From Halomicrobium mukohataei DSM 12286 (GTDB taxonomy: Archaea; Halobacteriota; Halobacteria; Halobacteriales; Haloarculaceae), in the NCBI RefSeq assembly GCF_000023965.1, contig NC_013202.1:990001-1022000 (forward strand): a stretch of DNA of 32,000 bases, read 5' to 3'. Each line of letters opens with the position of its first letter. The first letter of the stretch is position 1. The position numbers and the translations under genes are program-made. Shown piece after piece: positions 2,210-24,989 of this stretch. Under the pieces are notes generated by a model. That model made no database searches and had not been told where the DNA came from. It was given only the letters and a program-made list of their open reading frames with translations.

Positions 2210-2235
2210 TGATACGGGCACCTGTCGTCCGGCAC
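2210..2235. repeat. Degenerate solo arm of the 81-bp palindromic repeat family
   Basis: TGATACGGGCACCTGTCGTCCGGCAC shares the ATACGG terminus and the TGTCGTCC core with the left arm of the copy at 22307. Confidence 0.3.
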
Positions 2236-2295
2236 TGACTACTTCCACCCCGGTTTGCGAACCTTCTTGAGCGAGGACGCACTATCTCGGTTCCA

Positions 2296-4917
2296 ATGGC
2301 TACCGGCGTCGACAACACCGAACTCACCGACGCGTTCGAGGAGTTCTACCGGGACTACTACCGCAACGAGATCGGTGAACTCGCCCAGAAGTACCCCAAC
2401 GACCAGAAGTCGCTGTGGGTCGACTGGGACGACCTCTATCGCTTCGACCCCGACCTCGCGGACGACGTGCGCAACCGTCCCGAGCAGATGCAAGACTACG
2501 CCGAGGAGGCGTTGCGCCTGTACGACCTGCCGGTCGACGTGAAGCTCGGCCAGGCCCACGTCCGCTTTCACGACCTCCCCGAGTCCGAGGACATCCGTGC
2601 GATTCGCCACGAGCACCACGGGATGCTCATCGCCGTCCAGGGGATCGTCCGCAAGGCCACCGACGTTCGGCCAAAGGTCACGAACGCCGCCTTCGAGTGC
2701 CAGCGCTGTGGCACCCTCACCCGGATTCCGCAGGTCGCCGGTGACTTTCAGGAGCCCCACGAGTGCCAGGGCTGTGAGCGCCAGGGCCCCTTCCGCCTGA
2801 ACATGGACCAGTCGGAGTTCGTCGACGCCCAGAAGATCCGTGTCCAGGAGTCCCCCGAAGGACTGCGTGGCGGCGAGACCCCCCAGGCCATCGACGTGAA
2901 CATCGAGGACGATATCACCGGCGAGGTGACCGCCGGCGACCACGTCCGCGTGACCGGCGTCCTCAAACTCGACCAGCAGGGCGACGACCGCAGCCAGTCG
3001 CCGATGTTCGACCTCTACATGGACGGGATCGACGTCTCCATCGAAGACGAGCAGTTCGAGGACATGGACATCACCGAGGAGGACAAGAAAGAGATCATCG
3101 AACTCTCCAACGAGGACGACCTCTACGACAAGATGGTCGGTGCGATCGCGCCCTCGATCTACGGCTACGAACGCGAGAAACTCGCGATGATGCTCCAGCT
3201 GTTCTCCGGGGTGACCAAACACCTCCCGGACGGCTCTCGAATCCGTGGCGACCTCCACATGTTGCTGATCGGTGATCCGGGTACGGGGAAGTGCCTCAGC
3301 GGTGACACTCATGTGACGCTCGGTGATGGCTCTGAGGTTCCGATTCGAACGCTTGTGGAAGACAACCTCGACGACCCAAAACCCGTCGATGATGGCGTTT
3401 GGGACACTGTCGACTTCGAGGTGCCATCGTTGCAGGAAGATGGGACTATTTCCCAGCAGCAGGCAACGAAGGTCTGGAAGCGTGAGGCACCGGAGCAGCT
3501 GTATCGGATTCGGACGGCGACGGGACGAGAACTCGATATTACTCCGTCACACCCGTTGTTTGTGCAGTCTAACGGTCGGTTCGAGGCTGTGAAAGCCGAA
3601 CAGCTGACAGCCGGGCAGATGATCGCGTGCAAGGGCAATAACGACGAGACCGAACACGGGCAGAGCACCGTCGCAGCGGACGGTGGGGTAGTCACTGCCC
3701 AAACTGATCGAATCGAATCCATCGAGCCAGTCGAACCGGAGGACGAGTGGGTTTACGACCTCGAAGTCGGGGGAACACACAACTACGTCTCCAACGGCGT
3801 CGTTTCCCACAACTCGCAGATGCTCTCCTACATCCAGAACATCGCACCACGGTCTGTCTACACCTCCGGGAAGGGATCCAGCAGCGCAGGCCTTACCGCA
3901 GCGGCTGTGAGAGACGACTTCGGCGACGGCCAGCAGTGGACGCTGGAGGCGGGCGCGCTCGTGCTCGCGGACCTCGGGATCGCCGCTGTCGACGAGCTCG
4001 ACAAGATGAATCCCGACGACCGCTCCGCGATGCACCAGGCCCTCGAACAGCAGGAGATCTCCATCAACAAGGCCGGGATCAACGCGACGCTGAAGTCCCG
4101 GTGTTCCCTGCTGGGGGCGGCCAACCCCAAGTACGGCCGGTTCGACCAGTTCGAGCCCATCGGCGAGCAGATCGATCTCGAACCCGCGCTGGTCTCACGG
4201 TTCGACCTCATTTTTACGGTGACCGACGAGCCCGACGAGGAGGAAGACCGGAACCTGGCGAGTCACATCATCCAGACGAACTACGCGGGGGAACTCCACA
4301 CCCATCGCGTGGAGAATCCCACCTCGGACTACAGCCAGGAGCAGGTCGACGCCGTCACCGAGGAGGTCGCGCCGACGATCGAGCCGGACCTGTTGCGAAA
4401 GTACGTCGCTCACGCGAAGACGAGTTGCTTCCCGACGATGACCGAGGAGGCAAAGACCGAGATCGAGGACTTCTACGTCGATCTGCGGGTCCAGGGGACC
4501 GACGAGGACGCCGCGGTGCCGGTGACGGCCCGAAAGCTGGAGGCGCTGGTCCGTCTCTCCGAGGCGTCGGCGCGGATCCGACTCTCGGACACGGTCGAGA
4601 AAGAGGACGCCGAGCGGGCGACGACGATCGCTCGCTACTGCATGGAGCAGATCGGCGTCGATCCCGAGACGGGCGAGTTCGACGCCGACGTTGTCGAGAC
4701 CGGCACCTCGAAGAGCCAGCGCGACCGGATACAGAACCTCAAGGGAATCATCTCCGACATCGAGGAGGAGTACGACGAGGGCGCGCCGGTCGACGTGGTC
4801 GTCGAGCGAGCGGAGGAGGTCGGAATCGAGGAGTCCAAGGCCGAACACGAGATCGAGAAGCTCAAGCAGAAAGGCGAGGTGTACGAACCACGGACCGATC
4901 ACCTGAGGACGACGTAG
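2296..4917 (+). CDS. mcm: MCM replicative helicase, intein-containing precursor
   Basis: 873 aa. Zn motif CQRCG...CQGC, Walker A GDPGTGK/S interrupted by the intein, Walker B VDELDKM, arginine finger SRFDLIF, C-terminal winged-helix-like tail. Confidence 0.95.
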   Translation: MATGVDNTELTDAFEEFYRDYYRNEIGELAQKYPNDQKSLWVDWDDLYRFDPDLADDVRNRPEQMQDYAEEALRLYDLPVDVKLGQAHVRFHDLPESEDIRAIRHEHHGMLIAVQGIVRKATDVRPKVTNAAFECQRCGTLTRIPQVAGDFQEPHECQGCERQGPFRLNMDQSEFVDAQKIRVQESPEGLRGGETPQAIDVNIEDDITGEVTAGDHVRVTGVLKLDQQGDDRSQSPMFDLYMDGIDVSIEDEQFEDMDITEEDKKEIIELSNEDDLYDKMVGAIAPSIYGYEREKLAMMLQLFSGVTKHLPDGSRIRGDLHMLLIGDPGTGKCLSGDTHVTLGDGSEVPIRTLVEDNLDDPKPVDDGVWDTVDFEVPSLQEDGTISQQQATKVWKREAPEQLYRIRTATGRELDITPSHPLFVQSNGRFEAVKAEQLTAGQMIACKGNNDETEHGQSTVAADGGVVTAQTDRIESIEPVEPEDEWVYDLEVGGTHNYVSNGVVSHNSQMLSYIQNIAPRSVYTSGKGSSSAGLTAAAVRDDFGDGQQWTLEAGALVLADLGIAAVDELDKMNPDDRSAMHQALEQQEISINKAGINATLKSRCSLLGAANPKYGRFDQFEPIGEQIDLEPALVSRFDLIFTVTDEPDEEEDRNLASHIIQTNYAGELHTHRVENPTSDYSQEQVDAVTEEVAPTIEPDLLRKYVAHAKTSCFPTMTEEAKTEIEDFYVDLRVQGTDEDAAVPVTARKLEALVRLSEASARIRLSDTVEKEDAERATTIARYCMEQIGVDPETGEFDADVVETGTSKSQRDRIQNLKGIISDIEEEYDEGAPVDVVVERAEEVGIEESKAEHEIEKLKQKGEVYEPRTDHLRTT
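3292..3813 (+). mobile_element. Mini-intein (174 aa, no homing-endonuclease domain) inserted in the MCM P-loop
   Basis: GDPGTGK|CLSGDTHV...TPSHPLF...VYDLEVGGTHNYVSNGVVSHN|SQML. Cys1, TxxH block B, terminal HN and +1 Ser. Excision restores GDPGTGKS. The codons are visibly richer in A/T third positions than the exteins. Confidence 0.9.
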
Positions 4918-5190
4918 ATGGACCGCATCTCAGCACTCCGGAACGTCGAGGACGCACTGGCTCGCTTCGAACAGGGGGAGTGTTCGCTGACCGATCTCGA
5001 AGCGGAGGTCCGGGGCGTCTTGCGAACCTACGCGACCGACTTCGACGGGGAGTTGCAGGCCTACCGCGCGGACGGCGGCGACGCCGACGGCGTCGTCGTC
5101 CTGGCGAGTTCGCGCCCGGACGCCCGCGACCGAGTCCAGGCGCTCGTCGAGTCGCCGGGCCGCTTCGAGGTGACGCCGGTCGATCCCTGA
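4918..5190 (+). CDS. Small acidic conserved hypothetical protein, coupled to mcm
   Basis: 90 aa, good GC3. The ATG abuts the mcm TAG stop (TAGATG at 4915-4920). Confidence 0.6.
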   Translation: MDRISALRNVEDALARFEQGECSLTDLEAEVRGVLRTYATDFDGELQAYRADGGDADGVVVLASSRPDARDRVQALVESPGRFEVTPVDP

Positions 5191-5238
5191 TCTGGCAGTG
5201 GAAAGGGATTTGCGGGTGTAGTCCCTGTGGTTCCGGTA

Positions 5239-5799
5239 ATGCAGTCCGTGATCGACCGGTTGGACGGTGTGACGACGCTCCTGCTCTGTGGGTCGTGTGC
5301 GCGGACCGACGAACTCTGTGGGCGACTGCTGGCCGAGGGCGGTGCTGCGGGCCGGACGGTGCTGTGGGTCTCTTTCGGGCAGTCGCCGTCGGAGTGTCTC
5401 GACGACACGGTCGCGGCGGACGCCGATCGTGCCGTCCTCGCGGTCGGCACGACCCCGGCGGGCGAGCGAGACGACGACGTCACCGTCGAGGTGATCTCGA
5501 CGCCCAGTGACCTCGCGGCGCTGGGGATCAAACTCAGCCAGTTCATCGCGGAGACCGACGGCGAGCTGACGGTGTGTTTCGACTCGTTGACCGAGCTGCT
5601 CGGCCACGTCGCGGTCGAAACGGCCTACGAGTTCCTGCACACGGTGACCCGACAGTGCTACCTCGCGGACGCTCGGGCCCACTTTCACCTCGATCCGGCG
5701 GCCCACGACGTACAGACGGTCGCCTCGATCACGTCGCTGTGCGACGCTCGTGTCGACCTCGACAGCACGCCGCCGGTCCGCGTTCGAAACGACCGCTAG
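5239..5799 (+). CDS. RecA/KaiC-fold protein lacking a P-loop (probably an inactivated ATPase)
   Basis: First ATG in ORF 5227-5799. LLLCGSCARTDELC sits where Walker A is expected. LTVCFDSLTELLGH mirrors the Walker-B strand RVVVDSTMLLQH of the in-window KaiC-like protein (21200-21898). Confidence 0.55.
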   Translation: MQSVIDRLDGVTTLLLCGSCARTDELCGRLLAEGGAAGRTVLWVSFGQSPSECLDDTVAADADRAVLAVGTTPAGERDDDVTVEVISTPSDLAALGIKLSQFIAETDGELTVCFDSLTELLGHVAVETAYEFLHTVTRQCYLADARAHFHLDPAAHDVQTVASITSLCDARVDLDSTPPVRVRNDR

Positions 5800-5804
5800 T
5801 CCGT

Positions 5805-5813
5805 AAATTTAAA
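5805..5813 (+). promoter_or_regulatory. TATA box (AAATTTAAA) for the 5839 operon
   Basis: AT-rich box 26-34 nt upstream of the ATG at 5839, which fits a leaderless transcript. Confidence 0.5.
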
Positions 5814-5838
5814 CACTGAAAGCGAGGATCGTGGGCGT

Positions 5839-6174
5839 ATGTTCCTCGTGATCACGTACTCGCGGTCGGCACGGTCGTCGCTGCGCAACGTCACGCGGGC
5901 CCACGAGGAGACGACTGTCCGGCAGTTCGGCCGCGCGGCACTGCTCGCAGGGACGGCCTTCGGGGCGTTTCAGGCGTGTCGGCTCCGCGAGAAGCACGGA
6001 CGGGACGTACAGGTCGAACGCGTCGAGCGGTTCGTTCCGGCGGACGTGCCCGCCGACGTTCGCGAGGCTGCCGAGGCCTACGAGGACCGCGACCAGCCGT
6101 CGGTTCCCTATCGCCAGTTTTCCGTCGGGACCGACCACCCCGGGCCGTCGGCGCTCCGGGAGCGAGACCTGTGA
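5839..6174 (+). CDS. Hypothetical protein, first gene of the MinD-associated operon
   Basis: 111 aa (MFLVITYSRSARSSLRNV...). Its stop overlaps the next start (GTGA at 6171-6174). Confidence 0.6.
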   Translation: MFLVITYSRSARSSLRNVTRAHEETTVRQFGRAALLAGTAFGAFQACRLREKHGRDVQVERVERFVPADVPADVREAAEAYEDRDQPSVPYRQFSVGTDHPGPSALRERDL

Positions 6175-8457: not shown

Positions 8458-8477
8458 GTCGCCGACCGTCCGTATCA
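8458..8477 (-). repeat. Solo terminal segment of the 81-bp palindromic repeat, overlapping the tfb stop codon
   Basis: The minus strand reads TGATACGGACGGTCGGCGAC. 15 of the first 18 nt after TG match the left arm ATACGGACGGTTGTCGTC. The TGA is the tfb stop (8475-8477). Confidence 0.4.
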
Positions 8478-9436: not shown

Positions 9437-9497
9437 CACGTCAGTGTGGCCGGTCGAACCCGTCACCGACCAGCGCCGGCTTTCGACGTTCAATGGG

Positions 9498-9504
9498 TTT
9501 AAAT
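9498..9504 (+). promoter_or_regulatory. TATA box (TTTAAAT) for the 9529 gene
   Basis: 25-31 nt upstream of the ATG at 9529. This argues against the longer ORF start at 9493. Confidence 0.5.
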
Positions 9505-9528
9505 TACGTGAGAGATGAACTGATGGTA

Positions 9529-10035
9529 ATGACCCTCTCCGAGATCGCGGCCGGGATCGAGGTGACTGCCACCCAGCGCCAGCACGGCGTGGCGTCGGTC
9601 GATCGAACGGAGGGAACGCTGGCGGAACGCCTCGACGGCGTCGGGACCCGGCTCCCCTGTGATCCCGAGCGGGCGGCGACGCTGGTCGAGGCCTACGCGG
9701 CGGGCGAGAGCGTCGGTGACGCCGGTCGGGCGGCGGGACTCACACCGCTTACGGCAGCCAAGACGCTCCACCTGTGTGGCGAACACGTCTGTCCGCTCAG
9801 CCCGCGCCAGCGCGACGTGCTCGACGACTGGCTATCGGGCGACCTCGCTCGCAGCGAGGCGGTCGCACTCACCGGCGCGAGCGAACGCGAGTTCGCGCTG
9901 GCGACGTACGTCGCAACGCACGAACCGATCGCCGACGCACGCGAAGCGCTCGAAGGCGCGCTGACAGACGGTCGAGGGACCGACCGACAGGCGTCGCTGG
10001 GCGACGCCGTCGAGCAGCCGTCGGATCTGCTCTGA
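9529..10035 (+). CDS. Conserved hypothetical protein with two HTH-like segments
   Basis: MTLSEIAAGIEV... (168 aa). Candidate HTHs are SVGDAGRAAGLTPLTAAKTLH and ARSEAVALTGASEREFALATY. The stop TGA (10033-10035) overlaps the first base of a palindromic repeat. Confidence 0.6.
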   Translation: MTLSEIAAGIEVTATQRQHGVASVDRTEGTLAERLDGVGTRLPCDPERAATLVEAYAAGESVGDAGRAAGLTPLTAAKTLHLCGEHVCPLSPRQRDVLDDWLSGDLARSEAVALTGASEREFALATYVATHEPIADAREALEGALTDGRGTDRQASLGDAVEQPSDLL

Positions 10036-10115
10036 TACGGTTTATTGTAGTTGCTTACCGGTGATCGTCGCCACGGAGTAGACGATCACCGGTAAATCGC
10101 TACAATAATCCGTAT
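10035..10115. repeat. 81-bp imperfect palindromic repeat, copy A (inverted relative to copies B and C)
   Basis: Arms ATACGGTTTATTGTAGTTGCTTACCGGTGATCGTC and GACGATCACCGGTAAATCGCTACAATAATCCGTAT pair at 30 of 35 positions. The 11-nt loop GCCACGGAGTA is the reverse complement of TACTCCGTGGC, which is close to the copy B loop. Confidence 0.85.
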
Positions 10116-10161
10116 GAGACGGGGGAGACGCTCACCGGTACGTCGCTACAACTGTCCGTAT
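10116..10161. repeat. Half copy (loop plus one 35-nt arm) of the same repeat, abutting copy A
   Basis: GAGACGGGGGA + GACGCTCACCGGTACGTCGCTACAACTGTCCGTAT. The arm closely matches the right arm of copy B. Confidence 0.7.
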
Positions 10162-10228
10162 GCGGCCGTGGCCGTCACCGTCGTCTCATCCCCGGTTACG
10201 GTTCGACACGGCGGGCCAGCCAGCGGTG

Positions 10229-11409: not shown

Positions 11410-11523
11410 ACTCTCCCGTGCGTCCGGCGACCAAATCAAAGTTCGCCACTCGTCCGTCGGTGCCCGCGACGCTCGACCGCGGATATCGACCGGTTCACGT
11501 TCTCCGCCGTCCACGTCTGAGCC

Positions 11524-13271: not shown

Positions 13272-13351
13272 CAGTCGCGATCGCGTCTCGTCTCACACCT
13301 TCCCAGACGACACGACCTCGGACGGCCGAGAGGAAACTATTTGTTCCACGT

Positions 13352-22259: not shown

Positions 22260-22306
22260 ACCGTGTGATTCGGTACCGAGGAACTTGGCTGTTTCGGCAG
22301 GTTCTC

Positions 22307-22387
22307 ATACGGACGGTTGTCGTCCTGTACCGGTGAGCGTCTACCCCGTGGCGACGCTCACCGGTGCGCAACGACAACGTTCCGTAT
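22307..22387. repeat. 81-bp imperfect palindromic repeat, copy B
   Basis: ATACGGACGGTTGTCGTCCTGTACCGGTGAGCGTC / loop TACCCCGTGGC / GACGCTCACCGGTGCGCAACGACAACGTTCCGTAT. The arms pair at 29 of 35 positions. Confidence 0.85.
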
Positions 22388-22423
22388 CAGAGACGATAGT
22401 TCGGCGGGTCCCGTCGAACGGCG

Positions 22424-22737
22424 GTGTTCAGATAAGAGATCGAGAGTGGCGGAAGTAAAGCACCGAAAGCCCTCGGCCCGCTCGGCGGTTCTGTGGCGGA
22501 TATCCTCACTCCGCTCGGATAGTGCCGCCGCAGAACCGCCGAGCGGGCCTCGCCCTTTCATCCGCCAGGTATCGGCTATTTGATCGTCTGAACCCTGGCG
22601 GATGAAAGGGCGAGTGCAGTTGCGGGAACCCGGACCCCGCAAGCACCTACTGGAGCGCAGCGTGGGTCCCGGGACCGCAACTGCACGAGGGCTTTCGGTG
22701 TCTACAAGTCCACTGACGCAGTCGCTTATCTGAACAC
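22424..22737 (+). ncRNA. Candidate large structured RNA (four-way junction), family unknown
   Basis: P1 22424-22436/22725-22737 (13 bp) and P2 22461-22475/22686-22700 (15 bp). Hairpins H1 22476-22548, H2 22549-22614 and H3 22615-22685 abut with no linkers. The G-U pairs are compatible only with the plus strand. No credible ORF. Confidence 0.5.
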
Positions 22738-23818: not shown

Positions 23819-24829
23819 ATGGCGCGATCGGATCTCATCACGGAGGTACGCCGCGTGCTCGTGAACCCGCGGGAACGACGCCTGCGAGCGGGCTGGCGAC
23901 TGCTCGTCGGACTGCCGGTGCTCCTGTTCGTGCTGGCGGTCGCGGGCGTCGGTCAGCGGGCGGTACAGGCCATCCCGCTCACGGTGCCAGTGCTCGCGGG
24001 TGGGGCGATCCTGGCGGGAGCGCTGTTGTCCTACGGTGCCGGGACGGGCACGCTGGTCGGGCTCTCGTGGTGGCTCGGCGGGCGGACCCTCGCGGGACTG
24101 GGACTGGGCGGCGACGGCTGGTGGCGCAACCTCGGGTTCGGACTCGCCGTCGGGGTCGCGATGACGACGGCGATCTTCCTCGTCGAGTTGGGGCTGGGGC
24201 TGATCGCTGTCGACGGCGTACTCGTCGCGAGACCGACGAACCAGCTCGGCGTCGCCCTGCCGGTAGTGGTCGCCGTTCCGGTCACGCTCCTCTTTTTCGT
24301 CGGCGTCGGCGTCTTCGAGGAGGTGCTGACGCGTGGCTACCTGCTGAACAACATTGCCGAGGGGCTGAGCGGTGTCGGACCGGTCGGCAAGCGGGGCGCG
24401 GTCGCGGTTGCGGCGGCCGTGACCAGCGCCGTCTTCGGCCTGTTGCACCTGACGAACCCCAGCACGACGCTGTTTTCCACGCTCAACATCACCGTCGTCG
24501 GCCTGTTTTTCGCCGCGACCTACGTCGTCACCGACGATCTGGGAATCCCGATCGGGATCCACATCACGTGGAACTTCTCGCTGTCTTCGCTGTACGGCTT
24601 CCCCGTCAGCGGACTCGCGATGCCGGGGACCGTCCTCTCGGTCCGCCAGACCGGTGCCGACGTGGTGACCGGCGGCACGTTCGGCCCGGAGGGCGGACTG
24701 ATCCTCTATCTCGGGCTCGCAGTCGGGATCGCGCTCACCTGGTGGTGGGTCCGCCGAGTGGACGGCGCAGTGCGTTTTCGGACCGACATCGCCGACCCCG
24801 ATCTGCGCGATCCGCCCCGCCCCGAGTGA
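23819..24829 (+). CDS. CPBP-family intramembrane glutamic endopeptidase (CAAX protease-like)
   Basis: ATG at 23819 (MARSDLITE). Multi-pass membrane protein with FEEVLTRGYL, FGLLHL and HITWNF motifs. The stop TGA at 24827-24829 overlaps repeat copy C. Confidence 0.8.
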   Translation: MARSDLITEVRRVLVNPRERRLRAGWRLLVGLPVLLFVLAVAGVGQRAVQAIPLTVPVLAGGAILAGALLSYGAGTGTLVGLSWWLGGRTLAGLGLGGDGWWRNLGFGLAVGVAMTTAIFLVELGLGLIAVDGVLVARPTNQLGVALPVVVAVPVTLLFFVGVGVFEEVLTRGYLLNNIAEGLSGVGPVGKRGAVAVAAAVTSAVFGLLHLTNPSTTLFSTLNITVVGLFFAATYVVTDDLGIPIGIHITWNFSLSSLYGFPVSGLAMPGTVLSVRQTGADVVTGGTFGPEGGLILYLGLAVGIALTWWWVRRVDGAVRFRTDIADPDLRDPPRPE

Positions 24830-24909
24830 TACGGACGGTTGTAGCAATGTACCGGCGAGCGTCTCCCCGGTGGCGACGCTTACCGATACGCAACGACAAC
24901 GTTCCCTAC
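24829..24909. repeat. 81-bp imperfect palindromic repeat, copy C (more decayed)
   Basis: ATACGGACGGTTGTAGCAATGTACCGGCGAGCGTC / TCCCCGGTGGC / GACGCTTACCGATACGCAACGACAACGTTCCCTAC. 69 of 81 positions are identical to copy B by hand alignment. Confidence 0.8.
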
Positions 24910-24989
24910 GAGACCGGGCAGGCAGCGCCGGTGTCCTCGCGTGTGCCGGGACCAAGAGGGCTAAGTGCGCGCATCCGTAACGTCGGGAC

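Follow-up and report, generated by a model that had tools for sequence, protein, structure and literature searches.

Why does a short palindromic repeat in Halomicrobium end exactly on the stop codons of neighboring genes? The first-pass annotation of this window, the whole stretch of 32,000 nucleotides that was analyzed, described repeat ends reading T(G/C)ATACGG and pointed to three genes whose TGA coincides with such an end: a CPBP protease, an "HTH protein", and, on the minus strand, tfb. The window is GC-rich haloarchaeal DNA with ~98% identity to Halomicrobium katesii DSM 19301. Termini of the reported form are indeed present in it, seven times against a chance expectation of 1.14, and five of the seven lie within repeat copies. 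All three TGAs are the stops of real genes with clear matches to Pfam families (CPBP/Rce1-like, DUF7858, and TFB). The gene called an HTH protein does stop at 10033-10035, but the Pfam family found there is DUF7858. Full palindromic copies number three in the window (designated A, B, and C), and a truncated one abuts copy A; an HMM of the repeat arms confirms that A and C belong to the family. The relevant features are as follows.

23855-24829, plus strand: gene for a CPBP/Rce1-like intramembrane protease (Pfam PF02517, E = 2e-17; homologues), with an uncertain start, the reading frame being open from 23732
24827-24829, plus strand: TGA that terminates the CPBP/Rce1-like gene and also forms the left member of the 3-bp target-site duplication flanking MITE copy C
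24830-24908, unstranded: MITE copy C (TACGG...CCCTA), decayed (arm HMM E = 2.9e-7 and 0.017)
24909-24911, plus strand: right duplication of copy C, mutated to CGA
9493-10035, plus strand: DUF7858 gene, the "HTH protein" (Pfam PF25257, E = 7e-63)
10033-10035, plus strand: TGA, both the DUF7858 stop codon and the left duplication of copy A
10036-10114, unstranded: MITE copy A, intact, with 34-nt arms, a conserved 4-nt internal mismatch, and an 11-nt loop
10115-10117, plus strand: right duplication (TGA) of copy A
10118-10163, unstranded: truncated second copy (loop and right arm, ending CCGTA-TGC) that abuts copy A
22305-22389, unstranded: MITE copy B (22308-22386) with TCA/TCA flanks, fold -60 kcal/mol
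8470-8477, minus strand: TFB stop TGA (8477-8475) with a 5-7-nt resemblance to the element terminus
2210-2236, plus strand: degenerate solo arm, TGA followed by TACGGGCACCTGTCGTCCGG, in an intergenic spacer; resemblance judged by eye

The copies differ in their state of preservation. Copy A folds at -52.2 kcal/mol (z = -8.3), whereas the hairpin of copy C is largely lost (z = -1.75). Copy B is intergenic; it lies 48 nt upstream of a DUF7577 gene and not at a stop codon. The arrangement of copy A and the truncated copy is identical in locus L054 of H. katesii. The DUF7858 protein probably starts at Met13 (window 9493-9531), where all of its homologues except the H. katesii orthologue begin. The lone arm at 2210-2236 (TGA followed by TACGGGCACCTGTCGTCC), to which the arm HMM is blind, occupies a spacer flanked by a gene end at 2174 and a gene start at 2296. 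A tRNA scan of the window returned none, and Rfam searches of the window gave no match at the gathering threshold and only chance-level matches to miRNA hairpins at the E-value threshold.

The repeat is a 79-nt near-perfect palindromic MITE, TACGG...CCGTA, a non-autonomous transposable element. A scan of one-genome-per-species data with a pattern derived from the arm found 95 stretches, nearly all in H. katesii; the others were a few in one Halobacteriales MAG and a single match each in one Natrialba and one Haloarcula genome. With the arm HMM, at least 129 full copies were recovered from ~760 kb of H. katesii loci, which had been chosen for containing well-conserved copies. All but four of these (125/129) are 79-80 nt long, too short to encode a transposase. 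Their inverted repeats are terminal: among 76 distinct copies, 88-100% show pairing between positions 1-5, 10-15, and 20-34 and the corresponding positions of the opposite arm. Size, terminal inverted repeats, a duplication of fixed length, and dispersed, polymorphic copies, which comprise all of the testable MITE-defining features, were each found.

The palindrome has several internal peculiarities. Stem positions 16-19 and 61-64 form a 4-nt mismatch that remains non-complementary throughout the copies (0.03-0.05 Watson-Crick), and the arms consistently differ there (GTTGC versus GCGAT or GGAAT); the remaining stem pairs in >90% of copies. The 11-nt loop occurs in either orientation, GCCACGGAGTA or TACTCCGTGGC, relative to these asymmetric arms (for example, window 10070-10080 compared with L005 1214), the counts being 26/18 with the arms in one orientation and 8/27 with the arms reversed. 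Such a distribution suggests that the loop may undergo flip-flop inversion inside the palindrome. A sister MITE family shares the outer ends and the T-S-A duplication and has a different core (containing ACCGGATCGACCGCACG); its members lie at L054 6720, L050 1310, L068 236/371, L025 5979, L103 2028-2118, and L054 2378-2457. Where members of both families stand in tandem, they share one triplet. MITE copies have themselves been hit by other mobile elements (L078 4324-4720, L036 4916-5312, L042 ~894), among them one of 397 bp with ends ATGAGGGTGTCATAGAAG and an IS of ~895 bp ending AACTCAGCTTTGAACGTT; several apparent solo arms exist because of such interruptions.

The key to the position of the MITE is the triplet on either side of it, which distributes among the 129 full copies (left/right) as follows, together with an unoccupied site in the window.

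TGA/TGA: 57 copies
TCA/TCA: 51 copies
TTA/TTA: 1 copy
TCA/TGA (complementary): 1 copy
other, imperfect pairs: 19 copies
11518-11520, plus strand: empty target site GTC-TGA-GCC, filled in H. katesii by a related MITE flanked TGA...TGA

Identical triplets thus flank 109/129 copies. An extension of the stem requires complementary flanks, and a target-site duplication requires identical ones. The flanks are identical rather than complementary, and the triplet is therefore a 3-bp target-site duplication. The triplet also shows no association with the internal orientation of the element (Fisher p = 0.82), and the TGA/CGA class to which copy C belongs has three copies among the 129. The polymorphic site proves the duplication directly: the window reads GTC-TGA-GCC, and the H. 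katesii counterpart reads GTC-TGA-[TACGG...CCGTA]-TGA-GCC, where the inserted element is a member of a related subfamily. The duplicated triplet is T-S-A. A duplication of TA, as made by IS630/mariner-like elements, was rejected; it would leave a conserved T-S-A outside the duplication, on both sides and in direct orientation. On sequence, duplication of the S base alone (with an element ATACGG...CCGTAT) would be indistinguishable from the 3-bp parse, and it would have the same empty site and lead to the same conclusion. The target extends beyond the triplet. Its logo approximates G-W-C-TSA-G-W-C, with C at -1 in ~70% and G at +1 in ~60% of copies, and the preference persists on the gene-distal side of the insertions and among intergenic copies.

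The coincidence with stop codons noticed in the window holds far beyond it and well above chance. For 68/129 full copies, a called gene has its stop codon precisely at the flanking triplet, at the left end in 37 and, for genes on the other strand, at the right end in 31; the other 61 copies are intergenic, and none (0/129) lies inside a gene. Genes were called with our own codon-usage caller trained on the loci, which assigns 81% of the sequence as coding. The same coincidence appears in independent annotation: on the PGAP-annotated plasmid NZ_CP039376 of H. mukohataei JP60, the triplet is an annotated stop in 6/9 copies.

These results support a model, which we consider likely to be correct, in which T-S-A duplication by a MITE, target preference, and purifying selection together generate the distribution at stop codons. 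A transposase would insert the MITE at T-S-A, preferably within approximately G-W-C-TSA-G-W-C, and duplicate the triplet. When the target is a TGA stop, the gene-proximal duplicate would remain the stop, the protein would be unchanged, and the MITE would become the first 79 nt after the stop. Such targets would be plentiful, TGA being the commonest stop here (61% of called genes), and the frequent haloarchaeal gene ends GAC-TGA and GAG-TGA, with their acidic codons, already match one half of the preferred sequence. Intragenic insertions would be eliminated and those in promoter-side spacers depleted, making the stop codon the most readily available place to insert without harm. Roughly half of the copies would stand at gene ends because duplication on a TGA regenerates the stop and leaves the protein unharmed.

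How much of the stop bias does availability explain? Among T-S-A sites at stops or in intergenic sequence, stops make up 11% unweighted and 28% when sites are weighted by a target profile built from gene-distal and intergenic half-sites, although our caller under-calls genes and so inflates the intergenic territory in both figures. The observed share of 52% exceeds the weighted expectation (binomial p = 5e-9), and occupancy at stops is 2-7 times higher in each target-score bin. The placement of the intergenic copies is informative in this regard. Convergent 3'/3' spacers hold 26% of them versus 15% expected, and divergent 5'/5' spacers hold 17% versus 35% expected, a depletion that removal of promoter-side insertions would predict. 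If only 3'-side territory is counted as neutral, the expected stop share rises, by our own arithmetic, to roughly one half. That step closes the gap between 28% and 52% only approximately, since it depends on a crude correction for promoter-side insertions lost to selection. The data show that the MITE is mobile, duplicates its target, prefers a certain target sequence, leaves C-termini intact, and is distributed as described; we infer that insertion preference and purifying selection, rather than any advantage conferred by the hairpin, account for the excess at stops.

A benefit of the hairpin was nevertheless one of two explanations put forward in the first-pass annotation, in which selection places the structure at the end of translation. 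A stem-loop behind the stop might be advantageous by terminating transcription in part, by shielding the 3' end of the mRNA, or by influencing ribosome release, and copies there would be kept by selection. The residual excess over availability and the elevated occupancy in every score bin are in keeping with this idea, as are the very stable folds of intact copies (-52 to -60 kcal/mol, z < -7), the four stem positions that co-vary between subfamilies, and a mild bias (32:14) in the sense-strand orientation of the loop at stops. Transcription termination in archaea is usually thought to depend on a T-stretch. A hairpin alone, however, terminated 59% of transcripts in a reporter assay in Haloferax volcanii (PMC7237163). 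By analogy, an effect of the MITE hairpin on transcripts is plausible as a side effect.

Several observations argue against retention of the hairpin by selection. Copies at stops fold no more stably than intergenic ones (median -44.2 versus -45.2 kcal/mol), copy C has decayed, the elements insert in either orientation, and orthologous genes manage without them. The oligo-T tract at the termination point, the hallmark of archaeal terminators, is essentially absent from stop-located copies: a run of four or more T residues lies inside 1/68 and within 50 nt downstream in 5/68. Co-variation of stem positions would be expected anyway for two ends that bind transposase. Finally, the fraction of copies at stops is no higher in older copies, being flat from the best-conserved to the most diverged score class (0.59, 0.48, 0.51), with HMM score serving as a weak proxy for age since it also reflects subfamily; the stop bias is therefore established during or shortly after insertion. 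We see no sign of selection for the hairpin, which the distribution neither needs nor supports, and we regard this alternative as unlikely. We view with similar doubt a broader scenario in which a transposon that uses TGA stops as a landing pad put stem-loops behind many Halomicrobium stops (approximately half of the sampled copies) and some of these were co-opted as 3'-end elements for partial termination, mRNA stabilization, or modulation of translation termination.

A second alternative attributes the excess purely to insertion. The transposase may sense gene 3' ends by something beyond the 9-bp sequence, such as DNA structure, an intermediate of transcription or replication, or a host factor. 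The excess already seen in the best-conserved, and hence youngest, copies (0.59) would fit such targeting, as would the over-representation of convergent spacers and the repeated use of a single stop codon. The latter is illustrated by the CPBP gene of Halomicrobium sp. IBSBa, which encodes a protein 94% identical to that of the window and carries at the same TGA a different, related 78-nt MITE flanked TGA...TGA. With ~57% identity between this MITE and copy C but 88-95% between the flanks, the simplest reading is that the two inserted independently. Against active targeting, copies also occur in promoter spacers, including copy B and a copy in L054 that lies 4 nt before a start codon, and sequence preference together with purifying selection already fits the numbers roughly. 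Targeting of this kind seems improbable, slightly more so than a benefit of the hairpin.

The remaining explanation offered in the first-pass annotation, that the element brings its own stop and remodels C-termini, is very unlikely. The left arm does hold a stop in all three frames, and at most 7/129 copies have a called reading frame that enters the element and ends inside it; most of these frames are short, low-scoring, and doubtful, and three have 119-171 codons. One hypothetical CDS annotated by PGAP on the plasmid also ends inside a copy. For copies A and C, however, remodeling is refuted by orthologues that lack the element and end at the same residue. CPBP orthologues in L097 and L096 (80-81% identity) are without this element and end ...DPPRPE-TGA, as in the window. 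The C-terminus of DUF7858, ...PSDL[LRV], is conserved in an alignment of orthologues. L101 has the TGA without the element, and the stop of a convergent gene follows 9 nt later; L102 ends in TAA, again without the element. L103 has TAG, which is not a target, and two tandem MITEs stand instead at the TGA of a convergent ParA-like gene. Moreover, the TGA is not supplied by the element because it is the duplicated target, as the identical flanks of 109/129 copies and the empty and filled sites demonstrate.

The tfb stop has a different history. The gene encodes 286 residues ending GAC-TGA in all four loci, the TGA and preceding GAC being conserved in three orthologous loci, and this shared ending marks the stop as ancestral; the TFIIB repeat of the window protein reaches residue 285 of 286. 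The spacer to the convergent gene measures 36 nt in the window and 25-45 nt in the orthologous loci. The "solo arm" reported there could not be upheld as a repeat copy: it gives no arm-HMM match at E<=1 and resembles the repeat over only ~7-10 nt. As a demonstrable copy it was likewise rejected, since only GTCCGTA-TCA resembles the terminus and the HMM is blind to it. The resemblance may be chance or a tiny remnant; a rough estimate puts the chance of a coincidence of the tfb type in the window at p ~0.03.

The least credible alternative is a REP/RAYT-type or IS200/IS605-derived PATE that moves by single-strand transposition beside a fixed tri- or tetranucleotide without duplication, for although the repeat is palindromic, extragenic, and located at gene 3' ends like REP/BIME elements, and TnpB genes exist in the genus, the middle base of the triplet can be G, C, or T, the two flanks agree regardless of internal orientation, the empty site contains a single triplet, and the inverted repeats are truly terminal. 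MITE insertion at T-S-A thus remains the explanation we favor. The element itself is of an ordinary kind, and its consequence is neat: the stop is the duplicated target, neither brought in by the element nor shifted by it.

Comparison with known systems places the element among prokaryotic MITEs. Correia elements duplicate TA. REPs are not known to duplicate a target site and are associated with RAYT (Y1) transposases. Like enterobacterial REP/BIME elements, the Halomicrobium repeats are extragenic palindromes concentrated just after stops that can form hairpins at mRNA 3' ends; unlike them, they have a clear target-site duplication. They share with prokaryotic MITEs (Correia elements of Neisseria; elements of Haloquadratum walsbyi, PMC3119063; reviewed in PMC10969869) a short, non-coding sequence, terminal inverted repeats, target-site duplication, high copy number, a mostly intergenic location, nested or clustered copies, and presence or absence between close relatives. 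They differ from those MITEs in that almost the whole element is one 79-nt hairpin, the duplication is a 3-bp T-S-A, and half of the copies fall precisely on stop codons. Their position directly downstream of genes resembles that of archaeal intrinsic terminators and of hairpin-associated sites in Haloferax volcanii (PMC7237163), and the hairpin could partly terminate transcription; in contrast to terminators, the element is mobile, occurs in promoter spacers too, and has no T-stretch. Among the papers searched, none described this Halomicrobium MITE family or reported a concentration of archaeal MITEs at stop codons.

The kind of transposase that moves the MITE may be approached by analogy. 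The targets of the IS1031 group and of PIF/Harbinger-Tourist elements take the form TNA/TWA, and the ends of IS5-family elements read GA/GG. Within the IS5 family, the IS1031 group recognizes a three-nucleotide target (PMC2516522). The Halomicrobium MITE resembles both this group and the eukaryotic PIF/Harbinger-Tourist MITEs in duplicating a 3-nt T-N-A target, and differs from IS5-family elements in its TACGG termini; descent from the IS1031 group would be a guess. Neither the ~760 kb of H. katesii loci nor the 222-kb plasmid yielded an autonomous element with matching termini. Across all loci, outer termini paired 150-4000 bp apart proved to be only combinations of separate short copies, and an all-against-all BLAST of the loci revealed four other IS/MITE families, none with TACGG ends. 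In the complete plasmid of H. mukohataei JP60, the only such genes listed are those for an IS1595-family transposase and a TnpB.

With duplication of T-S-A, the puzzle of a hairpin abutting a stop codon dissolves, the 3-bp duplication regenerating the TGA. For annotation, the stops are genuine and the following 79 nt belong to a mobile element rather than to a terminator or RNA gene. Halomicrobium genes with or without a stem-loop of -45 to -60 kcal/mol right after the stop constitute a natural experiment in which effects of such structures on archaeal transcripts and on translation termination can be tested. Insertions differ between close relatives and are usable as markers of Halomicrobium strains. 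The family also offers a clean example of how target preference and purifying selection lead to "safe-site" distributions of mobile elements.

Other repeats and insertions were observed in the same regions. A second repeat of ~310 nt adjoins copy B (window ~22425-22735) and recurs in L035 (6096-6423) and in L096 (~2500-2900), where it lies a few nucleotides past the CPBP stop. Its terminal inverted repeats, GTGTTCAGATAAG...CTTATCTGAACAC, are 13 nt long and perfect, and its nested internal hairpins stay paired from copy to copy because changes occur on both sides of the stem. The spacer between the DUF7577 gene and a hexapeptide transferase gene spans 497 nt in the window versus 85-138 nt in relatives that have neither element. 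H. katesii L054 contains a 1587-bp IS (4291-5877), absent from the window at 13343-13350, with ends GTACGTGTTTAGCC and an 8-bp duplication GTTCCACG; part of this IS recurs in L063.
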